A stretch of 64,000 nucleotides of DNA from OCS155 cluster bacterium AG-333-G23 (GTDB lineage: Bacteria; Actinomycetota; Acidimicrobiia; Actinomarinales; Actinomarinaceae). The DNA is taken from contig QBZE01000004.1 in NCBI GenBank assembly GCA_003282445.1, positions 14,836 to 78,835 of the forward strand, given 5' to 3'. Below the pieces are notes generated by a model. It was not told the DNA's origin, searched no databases, and saw only the letters and a list, made by a program, of their open reading frames with translations. Shown one piece after another: positions 13,125 through 61,880 of the stretch. Positions within the stretch are counted from its first letter, which is position 1, and the number at the start of each line of letters is the position of its first letter. A program made the translations under genes and the position numbers.

Positions 13125-13562
13125 ATGGTATGCCCATTTGGTGGAAATGATTGTGTAACTAGTGTAATTGACTCTAGAAAAAATAACGAAGGTATACGCA
13201 GAAGAAGAGAATGCTCTACGTGTGGACAACGTTTTACGACATATGAAAAAGCAGATATAAATCTAATGGTTCTAAAAAACAGTGGCGAAATTGAAGAATT
13301 TAGTTATGAAAAATTATATCAAGGCATAGAAAATGCTTTTGGAGGCATTGACATTAGTGCTAAAAAGCTAAAAACGCTTGTAGATAATGTGCATAAAGAA
13401 ATTAAATCACACGGAAAAAAAGTAAAATCAAAAGTTATTGGGGAGACTGTTCTTAGTCATCTAAAAGGAATCAACGAAGTCGCTTATTTAAGGTTTGCTT
13501 CCGTATATAAAGAATTTTCAGATGTAACCGACTTTGAAAAAGAAGCTGCAGAATTTAACTAA
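13125..13562 (+). CDS. nrdR: transcriptional repressor NrdR
   Basis: VIDSR...RRRRECSTCGQRFTTYE zinc ribbon plus ATP-cone. Conserved neighbour of lexA. Confidence 0.9.
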   Translation: MVCPFGGNDCVTSVIDSRKNNEGIRRRRECSTCGQRFTTYEKADINLMVLKNSGEIEEFSYEKLYQGIENAFGGIDISAKKLKTLVDNVHKEIKSHGKKVKSKVIGETVLSHLKGINEVAYLRFASVYKEFSDVTDFEKEAAEFN

Positions 13563-14617
13563 GGTAAAGTATCTAAACTATTGTATAGATTAGTCTTATT
13601 TATTTTAAATACTTCCAGTGCATCATTAAAACTATTTTGCTCTATTTCTTTGTTCATATTAATTGCTATCAAAAGTGCATTTGATACATCAGTCTCATTA
13701 TTTCTTAATGAAGCAATTAATCTTCCGTGTAAATCTTCAGCAGATTTAAGTGTTTCACTTACAAGGAGTGTATGATTTGTAAATTCATTAATTTCTGGTA
13801 ATTTTTCATAATTCAATTTACTTGTAGCTGAAATTTCAGATAACTGATTCGATAACAGATCTATATCTAATTCATCTGAGATAATTAGTAAATCTTCGTA
13901 TATTAGAATTTCAGATAATAAAATTCTATAACTAATTAATTTATCAAGATCGTTAACTAATGTGAAAACATTATTTAAATTGTTATTTAAATTATTGTTA
14001 ACATCTAGATCATCTCTGTTTTGAAGATTTCTTTGATATTCCATGATAGTTGATTCAATTAATTGTAAGTTTGCGCTTGAATTTGATACATCATATTTAG
14101 AATAAAAATTATCAGTAGAGATTGTAATAATTTCCGGGAGTGTATTTATTAATTCATTAGATTCTTTTGTTAATGTTTCATAAAGATTAATTATTTCATT
14201 CTGTCTATTTCTGTTACTAATAAATATTCCAGTAGCTGAAACAATTAAAAATATTGTTGCTGTAATTAGAACTGCAGGAACTACCCATTGTCTTCTGCTT
14301 TCAATGTCTGTCCATATTTTCTTTATTTGAGATGTAATATTAATAGGTTCAAAAGTGTTGGTCGAAGCCTGCTCTATTGACGTCTCTTGTTCTAATTCTG
14401 ATTCTAATAAAGGATAGAATTCTGTATTATTTTGATGATCAATTAAGATTTCCTCACTTTCAATGTCAGATGTTATTAAATTTTCATTAATTTCCTTTAC
14501 AATTTCTGGCGAATGACTTAAGTCAGCATTTGTATCAAATCCTAAAATATCTAAAATTCTTATCTTATTTGGACTTTTAGCTTTATTTATAAAAATAAAA
14601 TCTCTAATATTCATCAT
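13559..14617 (-). CDS. hypothetical single-pass membrane protein (no family recognised)
   Basis: 352-aa ORF with one TM segment (WVVPAVLITATIFLIVSATGIFI). Flanking regions are acidic and Asn/Leu/Ile-rich, predicted helical. Confidence 0.6.
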   Translation of the reverse strand: MMNIRDFIFINKAKSPNKIRILDILGFDTNADLSHSPEIVKEINENLITSDIESEEILIDHQNNTEFYPLLESELEQETSIEQASTNTFEPINITSQIKKIWTDIESRRQWVVPAVLITATIFLIVSATGIFISNRNRQNEIINLYETLTKESNELINTLPEIITISTDNFYSKYDVSNSSANLQLIESTIMEYQRNLQNRDDLDVNNNLNNNLNNVFTLVNDLDKLISYRILLSEILIYEDLLIISDELDIDLLSNQLSEISATSKLNYEKLPEINEFTNHTLLVSETLKSAEDLHGRLIASLRNNETDVSNALLIAINMNKEIEQNSFNDALEVFKINKTNLYNSLDTLP

Positions 14618-15114: not shown

Positions 15115-15187
15115 GCGGAAGTAGCTCAGTTGGTAGAGCGCAACCTTGCCAAGGTTGAGGCCGCGGGTTCGAATCCCGTCTTCCGCT
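15115..15187 (+). tRNA. tRNA-Gly (GCC)
   Basis: Cloverleaf folded by hand: acceptor GCGGAAG/CTTCCGC, anticodon arm CAACC-TTGCCAA-GGTTG, T-arm GCGGG-TTCGAAT-CCCGT. 73 nt. Confidence 0.9.
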
Positions 15188-15190
15188 CAT

Positions 15191-15261
15191 GGCGACGTGG
15201 CGGAGTGGCTACGCAGCGGTCTGCAAAACCGTTTACACGAGTTCGATTCTCGTCGTCGCCT
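15191..15261 (+). tRNA. tRNA-Cys (GCA)
   Basis: Acceptor GGCGACG/CGTCGCC, anticodon arm GCGGT-CTGCAAA-ACCGT, T-loop TTCGATT. 71 nt. Confidence 0.9.
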
Positions 15262-15268
15262 CAAAGAA

Positions 15269-15940
15269 ATGATAGCTATTACTGGATCTGGTGAGTTTTT
15301 ACCTGGTATTAAAAATGCAGATAAATCATTATTTAGTACTATTGATAATCCCTACGTTTTAAGTTTTTCAACAGCAGCAGGGAAAGAAAGCATTGAAAGG
15401 CAAGAATACTGGAAAAATCTTGCAGTAAATCATTTTAAGTCATTAGGTTTACGTCATAAACATATTGAAGCAAAAAATAAAAATGAAATTGATAATAAGC
15501 ATGTAATAGATGAAATGTCTAAGGCAAATATTGTATATTTTTCAGGTGGCAACCCACAACATTTAATTAATTCAATTTCAGCAAAAAATTTTATGAATGA
15601 ATTAATACGTATAAAAAAAATTGGAATTCTTGCTGGTTGCAGTGCTGGTGCAATGATAATGGGTGAAAAAATGATAAAAGGTACCGGTTTAAATTTTATT
15701 AAAAATTCAATTATTATTCCACACTATGGAGAAAGTTATTATTCATGGATTTCAAATACAGTAAAACTTCTTAATAAAGGAAAATATAAACTTATTTGCT
15801 TAGAAAAAGATACATACTTTACAATTACTGAATCAAATATAAAAATAATTGGTGACAATAATATTCATATTATCTATAAAAATAATCAGACAACATATTC
15901 TGATGGTGACATATTAGATTTATCAATATTAGAATTATAA
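15269..15940 (+). CDS. peptidase S51 / class-I glutamine-amidotransferase-like protein (dipeptidase E / cyanophycinase family)
   Basis: YFSGGNPQHL and nucleophile elbow LAGCSAGAMIMG. The ORF-track start 15146 runs through two tRNAs, so the first plausible ATG is 15269. Confidence 0.75.
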   Translation: MIAITGSGEFLPGIKNADKSLFSTIDNPYVLSFSTAAGKESIERQEYWKNLAVNHFKSLGLRHKHIEAKNKNEIDNKHVIDEMSKANIVYFSGGNPQHLINSISAKNFMNELIRIKKIGILAGCSAGAMIMGEKMIKGTGLNFIKNSIIIPHYGESYYSWISNTVKLLNKGKYKLICLEKDTYFTITESNIKIIGDNNIHIIYKNNQTTYSDGDILDLSILEL

Positions 15941-16830: not shown

Positions 16831-16904
16831 GGGAGATTAGCTCAGTCTGGCAGAGCACTTGCTCGACAAGCAAGGGGTCACAAGTTCAAATCTTGTATCT
16901 CCCA
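16831..16904 (+). tRNA. tRNA-Val (GAC)
   Basis: Acceptor GGGAGAT/ATCTCCC, anticodon arm CTTGC-TCGACAA-GCAAG, T-arm ACAAG-TTCAAAT-CTTGT. 74 nt. Note C at position 33. Confidence 0.85.
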
Positions 16905-16912
16905 CAAATATT

Positions 16913-17794
16913 ATGAATAAAGAATTAAGATCAGCACTAACATCTATAGTTTTTCTATTTTGTATATTCTTACTTTCCTTTTTAGGGTCTAATGTAGTCT
17001 CAACTATTCAATCAATTAACAGTTTTGCTTTTCTATTACTCTTATCCGTGATAATTCAAGTAATATTTTTTATTCCATCCTTTATTCTAAAAACTGAAAA
17101 GTTATATGACTTGATAGGAAGTACAACATATATAATCGTTATCACCATTGCTTATTTATCTGTAAATACTAAAACTGCAACTGATACAATCTTATTTCTA
17201 TTTGTTGTTTTATGGGGAACAAGACTCGGTACATATCTTTTTAGAAGAATTCAGAGAGATAGTGAAGATGTTCGTTTTGAAAAAGCAAAAAGAAACTTTT
17301 TTTGGTTTCTTCAATATTGGATGGGTCAAGCATTATGGGTTTCAATAACTTCATGTGCAGCTGTAATATCTATCTTAAATACCGAACCAAATACTTTAGG
17401 CATAAATGGAATAATAGGTATTTTAATATGGTTAATTGGATTCAGTTTCGAAGTAATTGCTGATTTTCAAAAAAATAATTTTAAAAAAGCTGAGAACACC
17501 AATGATAAATTTATATCAGATGGACTCTGGTCTATTTCAAGACATCCAAATTATTTTGGGGAAATTACTTTATGGATTGGTATTTATATTATTTCGTACA
17601 CTTCATTTAGCGGTTATGAATATCTGAGCATTGTCTCTCCAATATTTGTCTACATTCTTTTAACAAGAATGAGTGGTATAAATATGTTAGAAAAAATAGC
17701 AGATGAAAGATATGGAAATATAAATAGTTATATTGAATACAAAAACAATACCCCAATTCTTATACCCAATATTTTTAAATTGTTTAATAAGTAA
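16913..17794 (+). CDS. DUF1295 / steroid-5-alpha-reductase-like membrane protein
   Basis: Polytopic membrane protein with C-terminal SRHPNYFGE motif. The ORF-track start 16859 lies inside the tRNA-Val; the first ATG after the tRNA is 16913. Confidence 0.75.
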   Translation: MNKELRSALTSIVFLFCIFLLSFLGSNVVSTIQSINSFAFLLLLSVIIQVIFFIPSFILKTEKLYDLIGSTTYIIVITIAYLSVNTKTATDTILFLFVVLWGTRLGTYLFRRIQRDSEDVRFEKAKRNFFWFLQYWMGQALWVSITSCAAVISILNTEPNTLGINGIIGILIWLIGFSFEVIADFQKNNFKKAENTNDKFISDGLWSISRHPNYFGEITLWIGIYIISYTSFSGYEYLSIVSPIFVYILLTRMSGINMLEKIADERYGNINSYIEYKNNTPILIPNIFKLFNK

Positions 17795-44746: not shown

Positions 44747-45385
44747 TTAAATGTCTTTTAATTTGTTATTTTTCCAATTATCTATTTCTTTATGATTGCC
44801 AGATAATAATACTTCAGGGACTGTCATTTCTTTATACGTTTCAGGCCTCGTATAAACAGGAAAATCATACGTACCATCTGTAAATGATTCATTTACTAAG
44901 GACTCTGAATTTCCTAAAACACCAGGGACTCTTCGCATTAAAGCTTCCATAAGGAACATTGCAGGAACTTCACCACCAGAAACAACTGCGTCACCAATTG
45001 ATACTTCATAGTCACTATGCATATCTATTATTCTTTGATCAAAGCCTTCATACCTTCCACAAATTATATTTATAGATTCATAAGCGAGTAAATCTTTTAT
45101 TGATTTTTCATCAAGTTTTGACCCTGATGGTGTTAAAAATACATTTATATCTGCTTTGTTATTTAATATTGCATTATCAAGAGGCTCAACCATCATAACC
45201 ATACCTGGTCCACCTCCGTAGGGTGCATCATCTGTTTGCTTATAATTACCAATACCAAAATCTCGTAAATTAGTAGTTTGAAATTTTAAAATATTTTTGT
45301 CTAATCCGTTAGAAATAATTCCAGTTTTTATCCATTCATCAAATAAATTAGGAAATAATGTAATTACATTATATTTTGATAACAT
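44747..45385 (-). CDS. trmD: tRNA (guanine37-N1)-methyltransferase
   Basis: SPOUT/TrmD motifs DDAPYGGGPGMVM, CGRYEGFDQR, SIGDAVVSGGE. Confidence 0.95.
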   Translation of the reverse strand: MLSKYNVITLFPNLFDEWIKTGIISNGLDKNILKFQTTNLRDFGIGNYKQTDDAPYGGGPGMVMMVEPLDNAILNNKADINVFLTPSGSKLDEKSIKDLLAYESINIICGRYEGFDQRIIDMHSDYEVSIGDAVVSGGEVPAMFLMEALMRRVPGVLGNSESLVNESFTDGTYDFPVYTRPETYKEMTVPEVLLSGNHKEIDNWKNNKLKDI

Positions 45386-47243
45386 CTTCTTCCAAGCTTA
45401 ATTCTTCAACTTTCTTTAATTTGGTATAAAGTGTATTTCTGAGATATGGTTTTTTATTATTTTCTTTTATAAGATTAATAAATTCATGATCTGTAGTTTC
45501 TTGACCATGCGATGCTCCAGAAGCTCTACTGATATTTTCGTTAATTAATGTGCCACCTAAATCATTAACACCAGCTTTTAATAAATTTGAAGCTCCATCA
45601 TGTCCAAGCTTAACCCAACTCGCTTGTATGTTGTCAATAAAAGTATTGAAATAGATTCTTGCTAATGAATGGATAAGAACAATTTCATCCCATGTTGGAC
45701 CAGGCATACTTTTTCCCTGAAGGTAAATTGGTGATCCCATATGAACAAAGGGAAGGGGTACTACTTCTGTAAATCCCCTAGTTCTACTTTGGAGTTGCCT
45801 TATTAGTGAATAATGATTTGTCCAAGATTTTATATCATCAATATGTCCAAACATAATAGTTGCTGTTGACTTGATTCCAATTGAATGAGCAACTTCCATT
45901 ACATATGCCCATTCTTTTGATGTGATTTTATCTGGACATAAATATTTTCTAATTCGATCATCTAATATCTCCGCAGCAGTTCCTGGCAAAGTGTTTAGAC
46001 CTGCGTCTTTTAACATAGATAGGTAATCTTCAATACTTTTATTTATTGTCTCAGCACCTTGCCATATCTCTAGTGGCGTGAAACCATGAATATGCATATC
46101 TGGTATTTCTTCTTTAATTTCTTTTACTAGATTTAAATAAAATTCACCTGTGTAGTTAGGATGTATTCCTCCCTGGAGACATACTTCTGAAGCTCCTGAT
46201 TCATATGCTTCCTTTGATCTTTCAACTACTTCTTTTGAATCTAACGAATAAGGAACTTCTTTTAGATCTAAACTCTTTGGGCCTTTTGAAAAACCACAAA
46301 AACCACATTTATAATAACACTGATTCGTATAATTAATATTTCTGTTTTTTACAAAAGTGACTTTATTTCCGTTAATTTTTAGATTTAATTCATTTGCAAA
46401 TTCTGAAATTCTATTTATATATTTTCCTGAAGTTTTAAATAATTCAGTTAAATCATCATCTGTAATTATTTCTTCATCTTCTAATTTTTCAAATATATAA
46501 TTAAATTTATCCGATTTATAATCTGAATCATTATTAAAAACATAATTAAATAATTTTGGAATTGTTTTACCACTACCTGGATACCAGTCTGTAGTCTTTC
46601 TTCTATAACCACGTACATCCCTTGTAAGCAAATAATTAGTGAATTCTTCTTTTTTAAGTATTTCTCTTGCTTCATTAATTTTTAGAATTGGTGATAAAAC
46701 AGTACGTTCATATAGGTTCTTATTGCTTATATTTTGTAACTCAGCAATCTGCTCAGTATTCCAATCTCTTAACATTAAGTCGTTTACACCATGATTAATA
46801 GCATCTAAAGCATCATCAATAGTATTTACATATTTAGATATTAAATGTTCATAATCTGGCTTATAAAGATTGATAAAATTCATATCATCAAGTTTGGATA
46901 CTTGTATTGTTCTAGGTTTTAACCTTGTTAAGACTTCTAATGCAACTTCTTTATTCCCCTTATATGAATAAACTAGTCTTCTTGAATCAGTATTTTTATA
47001 TGTTTCCCAATCTTCATCATTTATTAACCACATAGAAGATTCGTAATTAATATTGTTTGAAATTGTTTGGAAACCTTTTCTGTTAATTTCTACAAAATTT
47101 AGATCATCTTTTATTAAAAAAGAGGAAGTGCCTTCTTTTCTTCTAGAGTTTAAAAATATTTCATTATCATTGTCACAAGGTCTTATTCTCAGATAAGATA
47201 TATTAGCTTGCATATTCATATTTTTTTGGATATCCATCTTCAT
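45369..47243 (-). CDS. cofH: FO synthase CofH-type radical-SAM subunit with ~250-300 aa N-terminal region of unknown function
   Basis: Radical-SAM CYYKCGFCGF at aa 309-318. CofH-like C-terminal half (GGIHPNY...GTAAEILDD...SATIMFGH). Overlaps cofG by 41 nt and trmD by 17 nt. Confidence 0.85.
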   Translation of the reverse strand: MKMDIQKNMNMQANISYLRIRPCDNDNEIFLNSRRKEGTSSFLIKDDLNFVEINRKGFQTISNNINYESSMWLINDEDWETYKNTDSRRLVYSYKGNKEVALEVLTRLKPRTIQVSKLDDMNFINLYKPDYEHLISKYVNTIDDALDAINHGVNDLMLRDWNTEQIAELQNISNKNLYERTVLSPILKINEAREILKKEEFTNYLLTRDVRGYRRKTTDWYPGSGKTIPKLFNYVFNNDSDYKSDKFNYIFEKLEDEEIITDDDLTELFKTSGKYINRISEFANELNLKINGNKVTFVKNRNINYTNQCYYKCGFCGFSKGPKSLDLKEVPYSLDSKEVVERSKEAYESGASEVCLQGGIHPNYTGEFYLNLVKEIKEEIPDMHIHGFTPLEIWQGAETINKSIEDYLSMLKDAGLNTLPGTAAEILDDRIRKYLCPDKITSKEWAYVMEVAHSIGIKSTATIMFGHIDDIKSWTNHYSLIRQLQSRTRGFTEVVPLPFVHMGSPIYLQGKSMPGPTWDEIVLIHSLARIYFNTFIDNIQASWVKLGHDGASNLLKAGVNDLGGTLINENISRASGASHGQETTDHEFINLIKENNKKPYLRNTLYTKLKKVEELSLEEDVIKI

Positions 47244-48327
47244 TTATAACATTACTAACTTTTTCAAACATTTTTTCGTTCAACCATTCTTTATTTATAA
47301 AATTTGGATATACGGGAAGCCGAGGTTTTAAAATTTGACCAGAATTATCTATTTTTATATTTAATTCATTTAAATCAGGCCAGAGATGATCTGGATTTAC
47401 TAAGTCAATCGTTTTTGGTGATATTCCACCTAAGTCATTAATACCACTAAACAAGAAATCATCAACTGATGAGAGAAGATTTGGAGGGACCTGTAATGAT
47501 ATGTGCTTAGGCAGAAATATTCGAACTGTTGCTATTATTCTCAAAAATAGATCATTCACTATTTCAGGATTGTTTTTCATTAATGTATTTCTTTTTGCTC
47601 TAAAGTTTTGAAGTATAATTTCTTGTATTGCTGTATTTTTAAGGCAAAATAATATTAAGTTTTCGATGTCTTGTATAAGCTCATCTTTAGTATCTGTAAT
47701 ACCTAAAAGTAATCCTGTGGTAATTGGATATTTAATTTTTTCTGCATTATTTATTGTTTCCAATCTTTTTTCTATTATCTTAGTTTTTGCTTTGTAATGT
47801 GGTTTACCAGGATTAAAGACATTTTTTGAAAAAGTTTCTAACATTAACCCACCTGAAGGAGAATGATTTTTATATTCTATAATTTCACTTGTAGTCATAA
47901 GGCCTGGATTAGCATGAGGAAATAAATTATATTTATCATTTACTCGTTTCATATTTTCAACTAAATAATCATGAGTAGAGGTAAATCCTAAATCTTTAAG
48001 TTGGGTTTTTGCTTCTTCCCACTTTTCTTCAGGTTTATCACCTAATGTAAAAAGTGCTTCATAGCAACTATTTTCATGACCGACTTTTCCTATAATATCA
48101 ACTTCATCAAAATTTAAATAGGTTCCACCTTCTTTTGGAGACTTTACAAAAGTACAATAACCACAAGAATCCTGACATAACGTTGTCAATGGTATGAATA
48201 CTTTTGGACTAAATGTAATATCACTACCAAATTCTTGCTTTTTTATAGAATACGCTTTTTCAGTTAATTCTTTTGTTGATATGTCACCAAAGAGACATTC
48301 TTCTATATTTTTACTTAATTCAGCCAT
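47203..48327 (-). CDS. cofG: FO synthase CofG-type radical-SAM subunit
   Basis: Radical-SAM CQDSCGYCTF. CofG-like (NPGLMT, GLLLGITDT, ILQNFRAK). Confidence 0.88.
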   Translation of the reverse strand: MAELSKNIEECLFGDISTKELTEKAYSIKKQEFGSDITFSPKVFIPLTTLCQDSCGYCTFVKSPKEGGTYLNFDEVDIIGKVGHENSCYEALFTLGDKPEEKWEEAKTQLKDLGFTSTHDYLVENMKRVNDKYNLFPHANPGLMTTSEIIEYKNHSPSGGLMLETFSKNVFNPGKPHYKAKTKIIEKRLETINNAEKIKYPITTGLLLGITDTKDELIQDIENLILFCLKNTAIQEIILQNFRAKRNTLMKNNPEIVNDLFLRIIATVRIFLPKHISLQVPPNLLSSVDDFLFSGINDLGGISPKTIDLVNPDHLWPDLNELNIKIDNSGQILKPRLPVYPNFINKEWLNEKMFEKVSNVINEDGYPKKYEYAS

Positions 48328-52020: not shown

Positions 52021-52267
52021 TAAATTCTACTGAAGAATCAAGACCTTCTTCATCTGCTGCAGCTTGAGCAACTGTTCTTATAGCTCTTGCTACTCTACCT
52101 CTTTTTCCAATTACTCTTCCCATATCATCTGGTGAAGTTCTTACTTCAATTTGTACAGATTCTTCACTCGATGACGCTATGTCAACCTTGACAGATTTTT
52201 TATCTTCAACAATTTCTGAGACAATATATTCGACAACATTTTTTACTATTGTTCCTGTTTCACTCAT
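52013..52267 (-). CDS. KH-domain RNA-binding protein (UPF0109/YlqC)
   Basis: GRVIGKRGRVARAIRTV. ATGA overlap with the rpsP stop. Confidence 0.88.
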   Translation of the reverse strand: MSETGTIVKNVVEYIVSEIVEDKKSVKVDIASSSEESVQIEVRTSPDDMGRVIGKRGRVARAIRTVAQAAADEEGLDSSVEFID

Positions 52268-52707
52268 TCTTCTTCACTTACTTCCTCAGTAGTCTCTTCA
52301 CTTACTTCCTCAGTAGTCTCTTCACTTACTTCCTCAGTAGTCTCTTCACTTACTTCCTCAGTAGTCTCTTCTTCTGATTTATTATGCGCTTTAGAGCTAC
52401 TTTTTATCTTTGGTTCAGGAGGAGTTGGTATTGATACAACTTCTCCTTTTGTTGATCTCCATTGTGCCCATGCACCTGATATTTCTAAAATTTTTTGTGC
52501 TCTTTCTGATGGTTGGGCTCCTTTATCTAGCCATGATACGGCCTTCTCTACATCTATTTCAACAGTAGATGGATTGTCTTGTGGATTGTAAAAACCTAAA
52601 TCTTCTATATATTTACCATCTCTGGGTGATCTTGCATCTGCAACTACTACTCTATACGTTCTAGTCTTTTTCTTTCCTCTTTGCGCAAGTCTTATTTTTA
52701 CTGCCAT
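52264..52707 (-). CDS. rpsP: 30S ribosomal protein S16 with repetitive acidic C-terminal extension
   Basis: MAVKIRLAQRGKKKTRTYRVVVADARSPRDGKYIEDLGFYNP. The tail carries four copies of TTEEVSEE. Confidence 0.95.
   Translation of the reverse strand: MAVKIRLAQRGKKKTRTYRVVVADARSPRDGKYIEDLGFYNPQDNPSTVEIDVEKAVSWLDKGAQPSERAQKILEISGAWAQWRSTKGEVVSIPTPPEPKIKSSSKAHNKSEEETTEEVSEETTEEVSEETTEEVSEETTEEVSEEE
52272..52371 (-). repeat. 24-bp perfect tandem repeat, ~4.2 copies, inside the rpsP 3' end
   Basis: The unit CTTCACTTACTTCCTCAGTAGTCT occurs at 52272, 52296, 52320 and 52344, plus a partial fifth copy. It encodes (E)ETTEEVS repeats. Confidence 0.95.
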
Positions 52708-57154: not shown

Positions 57155-57544
57155 TTAGAATTTAAAATCAAAAGGAAGTATATCGCTGAATTTATACTTT
57201 TTGAATCCATCATTGTTTACAACAATTACATTTTCAGTATTAAATTCTGACATTCTTTGACGAGAAATTCCACAAGGAAAAATAGCTGTATCTGATTCTG
57301 CATCTATACAAGCCACAGCTAACGTATTAATTTTTGTTTCACCTTCTGATATTGCTTTAAAAACTGCTACATCTTCTGCGCAAATTGTTGCTGGATAAGA
57401 TGCATTTTCAATATTACATCCTGTATATATATTCCCTGAATCAGTAATTAAGGCCGCACCAACTCGAAAATTAGAATAAGGAGCATGGGCTTTTTTTGCA
57501 ATTTCTTTTGCTAAGTCTGCTAATTTTTGATCTATTTCTACCAT
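57155..57544 (-). CDS. cdd: cytidine deaminase (small tetrameric type) with atypical third zinc-ligand position
   Basis: YSNFRVGAA, CAEDVA. PCGISRQ stands where the family has PCGxCRQ. Confidence 0.85.
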   Translation of the reverse strand: MVEIDQKLADLAKEIAKKAHAPYSNFRVGAALITDSGNIYTGCNIENASYPATICAEDVAVFKAISEGETKINTLAVACIDAESDTAIFPCGISRQRMSEFNTENVIVVNNDGFKKYKFSDILPFDFKF

Positions 57545-60196
57545 TTAGTTCATATCATTTGTAATTAAAGATTCAAAATCTTGTTTAGTTTTAATAAATA
57601 TTCTTGAGCCAGAACCTGGTTCCATTGTAACTCCATAAAGAATATCTCCAGCTTGCATAGTCTGTTGTTGGTGTGTAACGATTATAAATTGTGCATCATT
57701 CTTTAAATAATCAAGTAAATCTATCATTCTATGTAAATTGGCATCATCTAAAGCTGCTTCTACTTCATCTAATATATAAAATGGACTTGGAAATGATTTA
57801 AATATTGCAAATAAGAATGCAATAGCAGCTAGAGATCTTTCACCACCAGATAATAGACTTAATTTTTTAACTTTTTTACCACGTGGCTGAGCGCTAATTT
57901 CAATTCCTGAATCTAGCAAATTCTCTTTATTTGTTAATTGAAGAGTTCCAACACCTCCTGGAAAAAGTTTTTCAAATATTTCAGCAAAATTAACAGAAAT
58001 AGAATTAAATGAAGACTCTATTCTAAAGGTAATTTCTGACTCAATCTCTTTAATATGAGAATTAAGTTCTTTTTTTGTTAAAAGTAAATCATCGATTGAA
58101 TTTTGTATATCTTCATATCTAGTATTTAATGTTTCATAATCTTCTTTTGCTAAATAATTAACAACACCAATACTTTCGATTGTCGTTTCGCAATTTTTTA
58201 TATTTTTTAGTAGTTCGCTTTCATCTTCATTTATTTCTGGATGATTTTTAATTTCATCTGATGTTAGACCTTCTATATTTGCTAAATAAGAATAATGAGT
58301 TGATGAAAAATTAGAATTCTCTGATTCTTTAATAAGTAAGTTGCTTTTCTCATCTTTTAACTTGTAATAAAGATTATTAAAACTTTCTAAATCATTTTCA
58401 ATGTCTTGAATATTTTTATTATTGACTCCATATTTATCATCATATTTTTCACCAGTATTTTTTAATATTTCTGAAGCTTTCTTTAGTTTTCTATACATTT
58501 CTGAAGCTGAAGTTGATAAATTATTTAACTGTTCAATATTTTTTATATAACTTTCATCATTATTACTTTCAACAGTATTTGCTAATTTTTCATTTTCATT
58601 ATTTAAGTATTTTATCTTTTCAGTAATTTCTATGATCTGAGATGAAAGAATGGATACTTCTTTTTCTATTTTTTTAATATCTAAATTATATTTTTCTTTT
58701 TGTATTTTTAATTCTTCTTTGAATTCGTCTTTGTTATTTATTAAATTTATTTGCTCTACTTTTTGCTCCAAAATAATTAGTTTTGATTCTGTATCTTTTG
58801 ACAGATTTATATTCGAAGCTTTTATATTTTCTATTTCTCTACTAACTACAGAAATTAATTTATTTTTTACTTCATTAAAATCTTTTTCATCAATCTTATT
58901 TAAATTTAAAGTTTCTTCATGTTTTTTTATTAGCAACTCTGATATTTTTCTATCATTATTTAAATCATCTAGCTTTGATTTATTATTTTTTTTCGATTTT
59001 TCTTTATCTTTAAGATATTCATTAATATATTTAATTTCATTTTCGATTAATGCTTCGTTAATTTCTAAATTTAAAGATTGTTTCTTAATTACTTCTAATA
59101 ATTCTGTATTAAGTATTTCTAATTTATTTGATTTTTCTGTAAGAATATTCTTTTTTAAAATTAATTGACTTGATAACGAAGACATAAGATTTGAATTATC
59201 TAATATTTTATTTTTATTATTTTCTTTTTCTTGAATATATTTTATTTGAGATCTTTCTATATTATCAATACGTTCATTAGAAATTTGTACAATGTTCTTA
59301 ATTTTTTCTGCATTGTTTAAGATTTTGTTTGAATAATCTTTATATAAAGACCCTAATGAAATATTTTCTCCTAAATTATCATGTATTTTATTTTTTAATT
59401 CTTTTTGATTTTTTATTAAATTACTAAGATTATCTAATTCTTCATTTATTTTTATTAATTCCTGATTTATTATTTTGTTTTTATTACTAAATTTTTGATA
59501 ATTTAATATATTGAATTTAATTTTTAGTTCTTTTAACTTGTTAACAGACTCTGCATGAAGAGTAGCTTGTTCAGCTTGTTCTTTTAGTGGTTTTAACTGT
59601 TTTTTAATTTCTCTAATTACATCTTTTGCTCTTTTTATTTCTTTTTCTCCAGATTCAATTCTTCTTAGAGCTTTATCTTTCTTTAATTTAAATGGAAGTA
59701 TACCTGCAGCCTCTTCAATAGTTATTCTATGATCTTCTGGCTTTGAATTTAATATTTCAGCTATTTGACCTTGCGAAATTATTGTATGCTGTTGTTTTCC
59801 AATACCTACATCACTTAAAAACTCTTGAATATCAAGTAGCCTGCAATTCAAGCCATTCATGAAATATTCGGATTGACCATCTCTATACAGTTTTCTTCCT
59901 ATTGATATTTCATCTGTACCATTAAATTTGTCAGCATCCACCTCGAAATTAAGATTGACTTCTGCAAAACCTTTTTGTGATAATTTTTCTGTGCCTGCGA
60001 AAATAACATCCTCCATCTTATTTGTTCTTAAAGTTGCAGGACTTTGAGTGCCAAGCACCCAAGAAATGGCATCAACTACATTTGACTTACCTGATCCATT
60101 AGGGCCTACAACAACATTAACTTTGTTTGAAAAATCTATGTTTGTGTTTTCTGAAAATGACTTAAAGCCATTAATATTTACTGCTTTTAAATACAT
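57545..60196 (-). CDS. smc: SMC-type chromosome partition ATPase, short form without recognisable hinge
   Basis: N head FKSF...GPNGSGKSNVVDAISWVLG. C head LSGGERSLAAIAFLFAIF, ILDEVEAALD, VTHQQQTM, LYGVTME. About 530 aa of uninterrupted coiled-coil-like sequence lie between the heads. Conserved smc locus near rnc. Confidence 0.85.
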   Translation of the reverse strand: MYLKAVNINGFKSFSENTNIDFSNKVNVVVGPNGSGKSNVVDAISWVLGTQSPATLRTNKMEDVIFAGTEKLSQKGFAEVNLNFEVDADKFNGTDEISIGRKLYRDGQSEYFMNGLNCRLLDIQEFLSDVGIGKQQHTIISQGQIAEILNSKPEDHRITIEEAAGILPFKLKKDKALRRIESGEKEIKRAKDVIREIKKQLKPLKEQAEQATLHAESVNKLKELKIKFNILNYQKFSNKNKIINQELIKINEELDNLSNLIKNQKELKNKIHDNLGENISLGSLYKDYSNKILNNAEKIKNIVQISNERIDNIERSQIKYIQEKENNKNKILDNSNLMSSLSSQLILKKNILTEKSNKLEILNTELLEVIKKQSLNLEINEALIENEIKYINEYLKDKEKSKKNNKSKLDDLNNDRKISELLIKKHEETLNLNKIDEKDFNEVKNKLISVVSREIENIKASNINLSKDTESKLIILEQKVEQINLINNKDEFKEELKIQKEKYNLDIKKIEKEVSILSSQIIEITEKIKYLNNENEKLANTVESNNDESYIKNIEQLNNLSTSASEMYRKLKKASEILKNTGEKYDDKYGVNNKNIQDIENDLESFNNLYYKLKDEKSNLLIKESENSNFSSTHYSYLANIEGLTSDEIKNHPEINEDESELLKNIKNCETTIESIGVVNYLAKEDYETLNTRYEDIQNSIDDLLLTKKELNSHIKEIESEITFRIESSFNSISVNFAEIFEKLFPGGVGTLQLTNKENLLDSGIEISAQPRGKKVKKLSLLSGGERSLAAIAFLFAIFKSFPSPFYILDEVEAALDDANLHRMIDLLDYLKNDAQFIIVTHQQQTMQAGDILYGVTMEPGSGSRIFIKTKQDFESLITNDMN

Positions 60197-60260: not shown

Positions 60261-61196
60261 TTAAATGATATTAAAAGTATAAACATCTGTATTTTGTAAG
60301 TTTTTAGAGTAATTTTCAACTAGTTTTAGGTAAGGTTTTTCATTAATAAAATTAAGATTATTAAGAAAATATGTTGATACTAAATCAACGGCTCGAAAAT
60401 TACCATCAACACATTTAAAAATATATGAAGACTCATTATTTGTTGCAAAGAGCACTCCTTCTGCTCCTGATTTTGCTAATAAAGGCTCTGAACTATTCAA
60501 CATAACATTTGTATCTGTTCTATTATGACCACCTACTAAATTGGGAAACTTTGTGTATGAATCAAATACTGATAACCAAGTATCTTTATAGTCCGAAGAT
60601 AATATATTTTTAACACCTTTTAAGAATGATTGGGAATTTAAATATATTGCAGGCAACCCACATCCGTCAATAGCATATTTAATATCGGATAATTCAAAAA
60701 TATCTTTAAAAAATATATTGATATTTTCTTGTACGGTATGGTTAAATTTATAGTAATAATCACTTTCTATATTCAATAACTTACAATATATAAGCATTGA
60801 TAAATGTTTACCAGAACAATTATTATTTAACTTAGTAAATGGTAATTTATTTGATATGTATTGATCAGCAGTATCAACATGCATAGGTCTTTGAGGGGCA
60901 CAAAAAATATCATTTGAATTAATATTATATTTTTTTGCAATATTTGTTAAAAGGTTTACATGTATATCTTGTCCTGAGTGAGAAGATCCAAAAATTGCAA
61001 TTTCTTCACTTTCAAATGTTATTTGTTTTTTTTTGGCTAGCAATAACAATGGAATAATTTGAAAAGGTTTAATTGCAGATCTTGGAAAAAATTTAAAACC
61101 ATCTTGATCTTTATCTGTCGTTATAAGTACTTCGTGTTTAGATTCTATGTGGTTATTTCTTAGAAGTTCAATATCTATTGATTTTACTTTGTTCAT
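60261..61196 (-). CDS. asparaginase family protein (Rhizobium-type L-asparaginase II, PF06089-like)
   Basis: Family pattern RSAIKPFQ, GSSHSGQD, NCSGKH, GCGLP. Confidence 0.7.
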   Translation of the reverse strand: MNKVKSIDIELLRNNHIESKHEVLITTDKDQDGFKFFPRSAIKPFQIIPLLLLAKKKQITFESEEIAIFGSSHSGQDIHVNLLTNIAKKYNINSNDIFCAPQRPMHVDTADQYISNKLPFTKLNNNCSGKHLSMLIYCKLLNIESDYYYKFNHTVQENINIFFKDIFELSDIKYAIDGCGLPAIYLNSQSFLKGVKNILSSDYKDTWLSVFDSYTKFPNLVGGHNRTDTNVMLNSSEPLLAKSGAEGVLFATNNESSYIFKCVDGNFRAVDLVSTYFLNNLNFINEKPYLKLVENYSKNLQNTDVYTFNII

Positions 61197-61880
61197 CTAT
61201 TTTTTGGTATTTAATAATGCTTCTTTTGCCGCCATTTGTTCAGCGTTCTTTTTTGATTTACCATTCCCTGCACCAATCACTTTATTTGTAAGTAAAACCT
61301 TTGAACTAAATTCTTTAGAGTGATCCGGGCCACTCGATGTATTTTCGTATGTTACTTTTTTTCCTATTTTTGCATAATATTCTTGTAAACGTGTCTTGTA
61401 ATCTTTTCTACCTGGGTCTTGAGATAATTCTTTTATATTTGGATAAATATATTTTGAAACAAATTTATTTACGTTTTCAAGTCCACCATCAAAATAGATA
61501 GCAGCTATTAAAGCTTCTACAGCATCTTCGATTATAGATTTTTTATTCCTACCACCACTTGCATCTTCGGCTTTACTCAAATATATAAATTCTCCAATAT
61601 TTATGTTCATGCCCAATGTAACTAATGAACTTTGATCAACTGCACTTGATCTAATTTTGGTTAAATTACCTTCATCCAAATTTGGATAATTATTAAAAAG
61701 ATACAAAGTTAAATCAAAATCTAATATCGTATCCCCTAAAAACTCATATCTTTGGTTTGATAGATATCCTGGTTCCTCATCTAAATAAGATTTATGAGTT
61801 AAAGCAATTTTTAAATATTTTTGATCATTAAATTTATAATCAATAGTTTCTTCTAATATACTTAAATCTTTTTCGTTCAT
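61197..61880 (-). CDS. rnc: ribonuclease III
   Basis: RNase III signature NQRYEFLGDTILD. C-terminal dsRBD (AGNGKSKKNAEQMAAKEAL). Confidence 0.95.
   Translation of the reverse strand: MNEKDLSILEETIDYKFNDQKYLKIALTHKSYLDEEPGYLSNQRYEFLGDTILDFDLTLYLFNNYPNLDEGNLTKIRSSAVDQSSLVTLGMNINIGEFIYLSKAEDASGGRNKKSIIEDAVEALIAAIYFDGGLENVNKFVSKYIYPNIKELSQDPGRKDYKTRLQEYYAKIGKKVTYENTSSGPDHSKEFSSKVLLTNKVIGAGNGKSKKNAEQMAAKEALLNTKK

Follow-up and report, generated by a model that had tools for sequence, protein, structure and literature searches.

A hinge-less SMC protein at the smc locus of the marine order Candidatus Actinomarinales

Introduction

Can an SMC protein serve its host without a hinge? The hinge counts as an indispensable part of SMC complexes, where it provides dimerisation, binds and gates DNA and closes the DNA-entrapping ring. 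The question is raised by a 64,000-nucleotide stretch of OCS155 cluster bacterium AG-333-G23 (GenBank assembly GCA_003282445.1, contig QBZE01000004.1, positions 14,836 to 78,835 of the forward strand; hereafter the window), in which the open reading frame (ORF) at 57545..60196 on the minus strand encodes an SMC protein of only 883 amino acids (aa). Here we report that this short SMC is fixed throughout the order Candidatus Actinomarinales, that by sequence comparison it is the orthologous smc of its hosts, and that its arm is predicted to form one long hairpin ending in a bare turn where the hinge would be.

A clade of "hinge-less SMC" has already been published as an observation, from the Tara Oceans OM-RGC (Environ Microbiome 2025;20:65, PMC12153180; preprint January 2024). 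It was described as a small, very abundant monophyletic cluster near the base of the actinobacterial SMCs, with no hinge and no CXXC, for which AlphaFold models gave a head plus a coiled coil. No GORG-Tropics single-cell genome had it together with a regular SMC, and its host was left as an "unknown lineage" within Actinobacteria, with paralogy considered. The SMC studied here matches that clade by description, the two being alike in their heads, the missing hinge and CXXC, marine origin, actinobacterial placement and abundance. Four of the relatives that we found (P0372, P0374, P0390 and P0431) bear Tara identifiers, and many of the AG-xxx single-cell genomes used here apparently belong to the same GORG-Tropics set, judging from isolate names. 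New beyond that study are the Ca. Actinomarinales host, the orthology based on synteny, the extent of the deletion and the geometry of the arm, the hairpin tip and its pairs of invariant residues, the pattern of selection, the loss of smc-ftsY linkage and the further hinge-less lineages.

Results

Canonical ATPase heads without a recognisable hinge

The coding sequence (57545..60196, 883 aa plus stop, N-terminus MYLKAVNINGFKSF; all parts of the gene given below are on the minus strand) matched Pfam SMC_N over aa 2-859 (E 7e-50), plus several generic AAA families. It also scored above the cut-off of the NCBIfam model TIGR02168 (SMC_prok_B; 619.9 bits vs. 567.35) in two stretches, the first of which aligned aa 2-489 with profile positions 1-502. 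A preliminary description, made from the letters alone, had called the heads textbook SMC, and we located every motif that it quoted. The N-terminal ATPase head half (aa 1-165; 59702..60196) carries FKSF at 11-14, the Walker A GPNGSGKSN from G31 to N39 (60080..60106) and the Q-loop Q142, with AGILPFKLKK following at 164-173. The C-terminal half (aa 676-883; 57548..58171) carries the signature LSGGE (aa 782-786; 57839..57853) at the start of LSGGERSLAAIAFLFAIF (782-799), the Walker B (mapped to aa 806-811, 57764..57781, and quoted as ILDEVEAALD at 808-817), the H-loop H842 within THQQQTM (841-847) and LYGVTME at 853-859. None of these five motifs (Walker A, Q-loop, signature, Walker B, H-loop) varies among 18 diverse relatives, whose invariant columns also mark out both head halves. 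In a search of the PDB both halves matched the Smc heads of B. subtilis and Geobacillus (5xg3 at E 3e-105), and the middle region had no match.

Between the heads, a composition count bore out the earlier picture of a coiled-coil-like, glycine-poor stretch. The region aa 170-700 has 7 isolated glycines, no GG, 2 prolines and 66% K/E/N/I/L. The only cysteines of the whole protein are C118 and C669, which leaves none across aa 119-668 and hence no CxxC.

We then looked for a hinge that might have been overlooked. SMC_hinge (PF06470) was absent from the 883-aa protein in a Pfam scan even at E<=10, and at the same threshold it was not among the 25 most widely matched families in 18 diverse short relatives (11 further families outside the top 25 each matched at most one member). 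As a control, PF06470 was found in 4/4 full-length Acidimicrobiia SMCs tested (E 5e-15 to 3e-7). Profile-profile alignment with hhalign, using apex profiles of aa 425-492 or 400-510 built from 34 sequences, gave probabilities of 0.02-0.2% against hinge alignments, that is, no degenerate hinge remnant. One candidate remnant, aa 441-453, which MAFFT had set opposite a hinge motif, was ruled out by these values (<=0.2%). The absence of a recognisable hinge, claimed at the outset, therefore stands.

What was lost can be read from an alignment with hinge-bearing relatives. It opened one large gap spanning the whole hinge, between residues 440 and 441-453, and two more gaps of roughly 50-60 columns each in the hinge-proximal coiled coil on either side. 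The canonical SMC hinge is about 170 aa long and sits where the tip turn is here. On this alignment the segment lost is the hinge plus about 50-70 aa of coiled coil on each side. By our own estimate from the B. subtilis head boundaries, anchored on the signature serine (S1090 there, S783 here), the arm is ~275 aa long vs. ~344 aa in B. subtilis. The preliminary figure of some 300 missing residues held in size, the protein being 256-342 aa below the other SMCs retrieved; as to content, the loss comprises the ends of the arms together with the hinge.

The short form is fixed throughout Candidatus Actinomarinales

We asked whether the short protein is shared by related genomes. Among 5.8 billion proteins searched, more than 120 distinct 883-aa proteins, 97-98% identical, were found on independent contigs of up to 1.09 Mb, and the exact sequence of the window belongs to a cluster of 217 members. 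When one genome per species was scanned, the host proved to be Candidatus Actinomarinales (class Acidimicrobiia, OCS155 cluster). These are streamlined marine actinobacteria with genomes of ~1 Mb and ~30% GC, and the window itself has a GC content of ~30%. In that scan, 38 Actinomarinales loci from metagenome-assembled genomes (MAGs) or single cells had 54-73% identity, and the complete ones matched over ~2.64 kb; the match length was 3.4-3.6 kb in the other genomes matched, mostly other Acidimicrobiia. Each Actinomarinales genome of the scan had one smc locus, including two contigs of ~1.0 Mb.

Translation gave the same result. All 33 full-length Actinomarinales SMCs from species-level MAGs and single cells are 881-888 aa long. 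A further copy, from a single cell, is cut short at 596 aa, and the frame is intact in 33/34 genomes examined. The 18 other SMCs translated measure 1139-1225 aa; 14 of them come from Acidimicrobiia or other Actinomycetota MAGs and the remainder from a few Firmicutes and other genomes. Among 1.84 billion representatives at 50% identity, only one 883-aa and one 879-aa protein matched end to end, and all other matches covered the two head halves only, except three short fragments of the same SMCs. The short SMC is therefore fixed throughout the order, and the recurrence of its length in independent assemblies and in single-cell genomes settles the earlier concern about an internal assembly deletion.

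NCBI names a hinge-less relative of 879 aa (P0430, MEC7820423.1; P0123) "AAA family ATPase" and not SMC. With such a label a hinge-less smc is easily missed by annotation-based condensin surveys.

The upstream gene order agrees with the ancestral smc position

Upstream of smc the window has, in this order, genes for asparaginase II (60261..61196, minus strand; PF06089, E 3e-60) and RNase III (rnc, 61197..61880, minus strand; Pfam Ribonuclease_3 and dsrm), then plsX, rpmF and yceD. Directly downstream lies a cytidine deaminase gene (57155..57544, minus strand; PF00383). The rest of the window, whose gene order was read by eye from the translations, runs rpsP-rimM-trmD-rplS-lepB-rnhB ... xerC-rpsB-tsf-pyrH-frr ... 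nusA-infB ... pnp ... recA, and the classical actinobacterial order is kept across it. Hinge-bearing and other actinobacterial loci have the order yceD-plsX-rnc-(mutM)-smc-ftsY-ffh-rpsP. The asparaginase II gene is an insertion between rnc and smc in the window, and the Actinomarina-clade loci keep mutM at that place.

The downstream side differs. The 64-kb window contains neither ftsY nor ffh, both genes are also missing from the 10 kb on either side of smc in every Actinomarinales locus, and the cytidine deaminase gene occupies the place that ftsY has in other lineages. In most other loci with downstream sequence, ftsY comes after smc. The smc-ftsY(-ffh) linkage is broken in Ca. Actinomarinales (loci L001-L038, as against L039-L076, L078 and L079). 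We also considered the immediate neighbours as new partner subunits of the SMC and rejected them, as they are an asparaginase II and a cytidine deaminase.

A neighbour-joining tree of the head domains placed the Actinomarinales clade on a long branch, sister to the hinge-bearing Acidimicrobiia SMCs. Head identity to the other SMCs retrieved was 45-53% (52-53% for Acidimicrobiia, 45% for two Firmicutes genomes). The NCBIfam models of RecN, SbcC and Rad50 scored 22-57 bits vs. cut-offs of roughly 400-1100, as detailed in the Discussion. Synteny and the placement in the head tree indicate that the gene is the ancestral orthologous smc and not a RecN- or SbcC-type paralogue. The preliminary description had reached the same assignment from the rnc...smc neighbourhood, and both the gene order of other Actinobacteria and the TIGR02168 score agree with it.

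The arm is predicted to be one hairpin with a bare tip

We modelled the protein with AlphaFold2 (AF2). The full-length model, from a shallow alignment, had a mean predicted local distance difference test score (pLDDT) of 72.9 and gave an SMC head with long helices, among them the arm helices 247-374 and 377-427 and a reversal after 428. Its matches in the PDB were SMC, Smc5/6, condensin and Rad50 chains, including 3zgx. A second model, restricted to aa 300-620 and built from a more diverse alignment, reached a mean pLDDT of 87.6. It predicted a helix at 301-432, a turn at 433-437 and helices at 438-488, 490-543, 547-589 and 593-618. Block means of pLDDT were 87-97 along helix 301-432, except 76 at aa 370-379, and 87-91 on the flanks of the turn. 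The best PDB matches of this fragment were the Smc arm fragments 5nnv (B. subtilis) and 5xg2 (Pyrococcus).

The two models, together with the alignment and the hhalign result, allow the arm to be divided as follows. A head-proximal N-terminal helix, the neck (aa 166-236; 59489..59701; AF2 helix 167-236), is followed by the N-terminal strand of the coiled coil (aa 237-432; 58901..59488), the five-residue turn KIDEK at the tip (aa 433-437; 58886..58900) and the C-terminal strand (aa 438-675; 58172..58885), the latter also marked by invariant columns and the matches to 5nnv and 5xg2. The gap against hinge-bearing SMCs falls at aa 440/441, near the predicted turn. The arm is thus modelled as one continuous antiparallel coiled-coil hairpin that ends bare at aa 433-437, in agreement with the view of a hinge-free coiled coil from which the work started. 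A small globular domain at the apex, suggested by two short low-confidence helices of the first run, was discarded, as the better alignment gave a confident continuous hairpin. An apex of this predicted kind, with neither cysteines nor extra hydrophobic positions, speaks against a hook like that of Rad50 and lends no positive support to a tip interface like that of RecN. Of the early suggestion of a RecN- or Rad50-like apex, the Rad50 half becomes less likely and the RecN half gains nothing.

All parts of the protein are under purifying selection

The ratio of nonsynonymous to synonymous substitutions (dN/dS; Nei-Gojobori, pooled over seven pairs) was 0.03 in both head halves, 0.07 in the neck, 0.14-0.21 in the arms and 0.18 at the tip. 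Heads, neck, arms and tip are therefore all under purifying selection. The neck is the best-conserved stretch of the arm, with conservation of 0.83-0.97 at aa 166-210 vs. 0.4-0.6 further out. In B. subtilis the neck surface binds the N-terminus of ScpA (compare the structural match 3zgx). High conservation of the neck is as expected if a kleisin N-terminus still binds there.

The length of the arm is nearly constant. An alignment of 34 non-identical short SMCs (881-888 aa) takes 888 columns. When two more sequences are included, the distal module (aa 377-543) has a length of exactly 167 aa in 35/36 and of 166 aa in one. Over the turn and the distal module together, the only length variants among the 36 are one -2/+2 and one -1, while identity of the module between clades is just 23-34%. 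Some residues of this module never change. Charged ones among them face each other at matching distances from the turn, with D415 across from R453-E454 and E378/E381 across from K493. L476 never changes either, and at position 412 all sequences have W, F or L. The invariant charged residues would fit salt bridges that set the register inside one hairpin. A profile search with the distal module recovered only nine fragments of the same SMCs; its pre-filter was swamped by low-complexity K/E/N-rich proteins, making it uninformative on other families.

How the complex might be held together

By considering these results we propose that an ancestor of Actinomarinales underwent an in-frame deletion of the whole hinge with about 50-70 residues of coiled coil per side. 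The strands of the arm would now be joined directly, and the monomer would be an ABC-ATPase head carrying an antiparallel hairpin of roughly 40 nm. The invariant motifs suggest that the normal Smc ATPase cycle is still run, with two heads sandwiching ATP, because the signature motif makes sense only in this arrangement. A kleisin, which we assume as the partner, is probably still bound at the strongly conserved neck and at the cap. The candidate modes of dimerisation are heads and kleisin with laterally aligned arms, a tip-to-tip contact, or no closure at the apex. In the first, the dimer would be held by the head/ScpAB end and by the lateral alignment of two arms of equal length into a rod; such alignment would explain the near-absence of indels in the arm. 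Functions specific to the hinge, namely its DNA binding and gating, would presumably be lost.

Studies of engineered SMCs bear on this choice. B. subtilis Smc tolerates replacement of its hinge by the Rad50 zinc hook, showing that a dimerisation device is needed and the hinge fold is not, and it works with arms shortened to 253-267 aa (PMC5344682). Hinge dimerisation mutants of B. subtilis lose function (PMC5344682, introduction). For the Wadjet JetC core, from which the segment between elbow and hinge has been removed, DNA extrusion requires that the construct be cross-linked shut, and dithiothreitol abolishes the activity (PMC12647877). Since a swap of the hinge fold works and an open ring fails, some closure by arm-arm or tip contact is likelier than none. 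We therefore favour, at a probability of about 0.55, a complex resembling Smc-ScpAB whose equal arms are held at the head/kleisin end and by lateral alignment or a weak contact of the tips.

Several observations weigh against this reading. ScpA and ScpB were not found by tblastn, with approximate B. subtilis queries, in the window or in 76 loci of +/-10 kb. Those locus ORFs that lack a counterpart in the window, judged by eye from their translations, are recG, rsmD, coaD, ddl, mutM, a photolyase-like ORF and similar, with no kleisin among them. The arm, at ~275 aa, is just beyond the range of 253-267 aa that is functional in the engineered B. subtilis Mini-Smc (PMC5344682). The apex of the full-length AF2 model has low confidence, with pLDDT <50 at aa 424-488. 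Finally, there is no hydrophobic excess at the tip: in the two 21-residue stretches that flank the turn, conserved hydrophobic columns number 1.3-1.7 per heptad, as against 1.4-2.0 elsewhere in the arm. As no extra hydrophobic columns are present, the sequence gives no sign of a four-helix bundle or another dimer interface at the tip.

The alternative that survives best holds that the arms never join distally and are fixed only at the head/kleisin end, the complex acting without a closed ring by clamping DNA both on its engaged heads and within the kleisin compartment. It accords with a predicted tip that is a bare five-residue turn, free of cysteine, extra conserved hydrophobics and any globular remnant, in the least conserved part of the protein. 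However, opening the far end abolishes function in the systems tested, B. subtilis (PMC5344682) and the Wadjet core (PMC12647877), and a free tip should tolerate indels, yet the turn and the distal module keep their length. We regard the open arms, and likewise the clamping, as possible and on balance unlikely. Slightly less likely again is the full claim that the Actinomarinales Smc organises the chromosome with distally unjoined arms, and so would be a natural SMC motor lacking a closed ring.

A RecN-like dimer, in which the hairpin ends pair head-to-head or as a short four-helix bundle and constitutively replace the hinge, is more doubtful. RecN is a precedent in the SMC family for a hinge-less apex dimer, the tip is constrained (dN/dS 0.18) and nearly invariant in length, and W/F/L412, D415, R453 and E454 are invariant near it. 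Against this, the invariant residues are charged and face each other within one hairpin, no additional hydrophobic seam is seen, and the RecN model reaches 43.7 bits vs. its cut-off of 407.85. We consider it very improbable that the gene is an accessory paralogue or a repurposed RecN-, SbcC- or Rad50-like repair ATPase while another system organises the chromosome. Only 64 kb of a genome of ~1 Mb are visible in the window, and the "AAA family ATPase" label of the 879-aa relative would suit such a protein; the ancestral position of the gene, the head tree with its hinge-bearing Acidimicrobiia sisters, the single smc locus per genome in the species scan and the finding that single-cell genomes of GORG-Tropics do not combine the hinge-less form with a regular SMC (PMC12153180) all speak against it. 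An assembly deletion, or a decaying pseudogene of a streamlined genome, has the short length in its favour and nothing else, and is practically dismissed by equal length in hundreds of independent assemblies and single-cell genomes, the frame intact in 33/34 genomes and an overall dN/dS of about 0.1.

Hinge-less forms in other lineages

SMC_N proteins of 763-945 aa without PF06470 were also found in the rnc...smc locus of unrelated high-GC (53-65%) lineages. The best represented is a form of 858 aa (L079:8001-10577; P0419/P0262), which is seen in a dozen or more assemblies and belongs to a cluster of 17, in which 12 listed members are full-length at 858 aa and come from separate contigs; one locus reads recG-rsmD-coaD-...-yceD-rnc-ROK-smc-ftsY-ffh-rpsP. 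A related form of 936 aa (L077:6001-8811; P0256) and another of 838 aa (L078:4954-7470; P0127) are singletons, and L077 ends just after smc. In these three loci rnc lies upstream of smc with one to five genes between them, and ftsY is the next gene after smc in L078 and L079. A form of 933 aa occurs in three assemblies, and singletons of 763 and 945 aa also lack PF06470; P0247, P0227 and P0136 belong to this set of SMC_N proteins.

In the head tree these forms are scattered among hinge-bearing SMCs, and the heads of the 838-aa protein are 72-73% identical to those of the hinge-bearing L041 and L039. From these placements the hinge seems to have been lost several times independently. The singletons could be assembly or strain artefacts.

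Other features of the window

We also noted features of the window away from the smc locus. In rpsP (52264..52707, minus strand) a perfect 24-nucleotide tandem repeat at 52271..52371 (4.2 copies, 100% matches) encodes an acidic (TTEEVSEE)n tail at the C-terminus of ribosomal protein S16. Genes for tRNA-Gly(gcc), tRNA-Cys(gca) and tRNA-Val(gac) lie at 15115..15262 and 16831..16905. The listed ORFs 15146..15940 and 16859..17794 overlap these genes at their 5' ends and therefore have spurious N-termini. Two radical-SAM genes at 45369..47243 and 47203..48327 (minus strand) overlap by 41 nucleotides and are read as CofH-like and CofG-like, a putative FO synthase of F420 biosynthesis. CofH_C matched the first gene only, and the second gave a weak Radical_SAM match below the Pfam cut-off. 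The CofH-like protein has 624 aa, with an N-terminal extension of ~290 aa that has no Pfam match. For an ORF of 352 aa (13559..14617, minus strand) no Pfam family matched at E<=0.001; judging from the translation, it seems to have a single hydrophobic segment and, in its N-terminal half, an acidic sequence of low complexity.

Discussion

Compared with known systems, the Actinomarinales SMC resembles the canonical Smc of Smc-ScpAB (B. subtilis, 1186 aa), with which it shares the ATPase motifs, the neck, a long antiparallel arm and the position near rnc. Unlike it, the protein has no hinge, has arms of ~275 vs. ~344 aa and has lost the smc-ftsY linkage. In RecN, too, an SMC-family head carries a coiled coil with no hinge at its end, but RecN is about 550 aa long, has much shorter arms and differs in locus and function, and its model TIGR00634 falls far below cut-off here (43.7 bits vs. 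407.85). Rad50 and SbcC also join a head to a long hinge-free coiled coil, but they dimerise through a CxxC zinc hook, and their models score 22-57 bits vs. cut-offs of 478-1087. Engineered proteins offer a functional parallel: Smc(Zh) and Mini-Smc (Burmann et al. 2017, PMC5344682) and the JetC core (PMC12647877) function without the hinge fold, with arms ~80-90 aa shorter. These constructs keep a zinc hook or a disulfide, whereas the Actinomarinales SMC has no recognisable dimerisation device.

In conclusion, the only visible smc of an entire order of free-living and very abundant marine bacteria is a hinge-less one that is under purifying selection. The protein is a natural experiment on which parts of an SMC are required, and it complements the engineered hinge swaps and Mini-Smc. 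Knowledge of its host, its likely orthology and the apparent recurrence of hinge loss make hinge-less SMC a more concrete experimental target, and the compact protein is suited to direct tests of hinge-free dimerisation, ring closure and loop extrusion. If the arms are indeed distally unjoined, recurrent hinge loss would mean that ring closure at the apex may be dispensable in small or slow-growing genomes.

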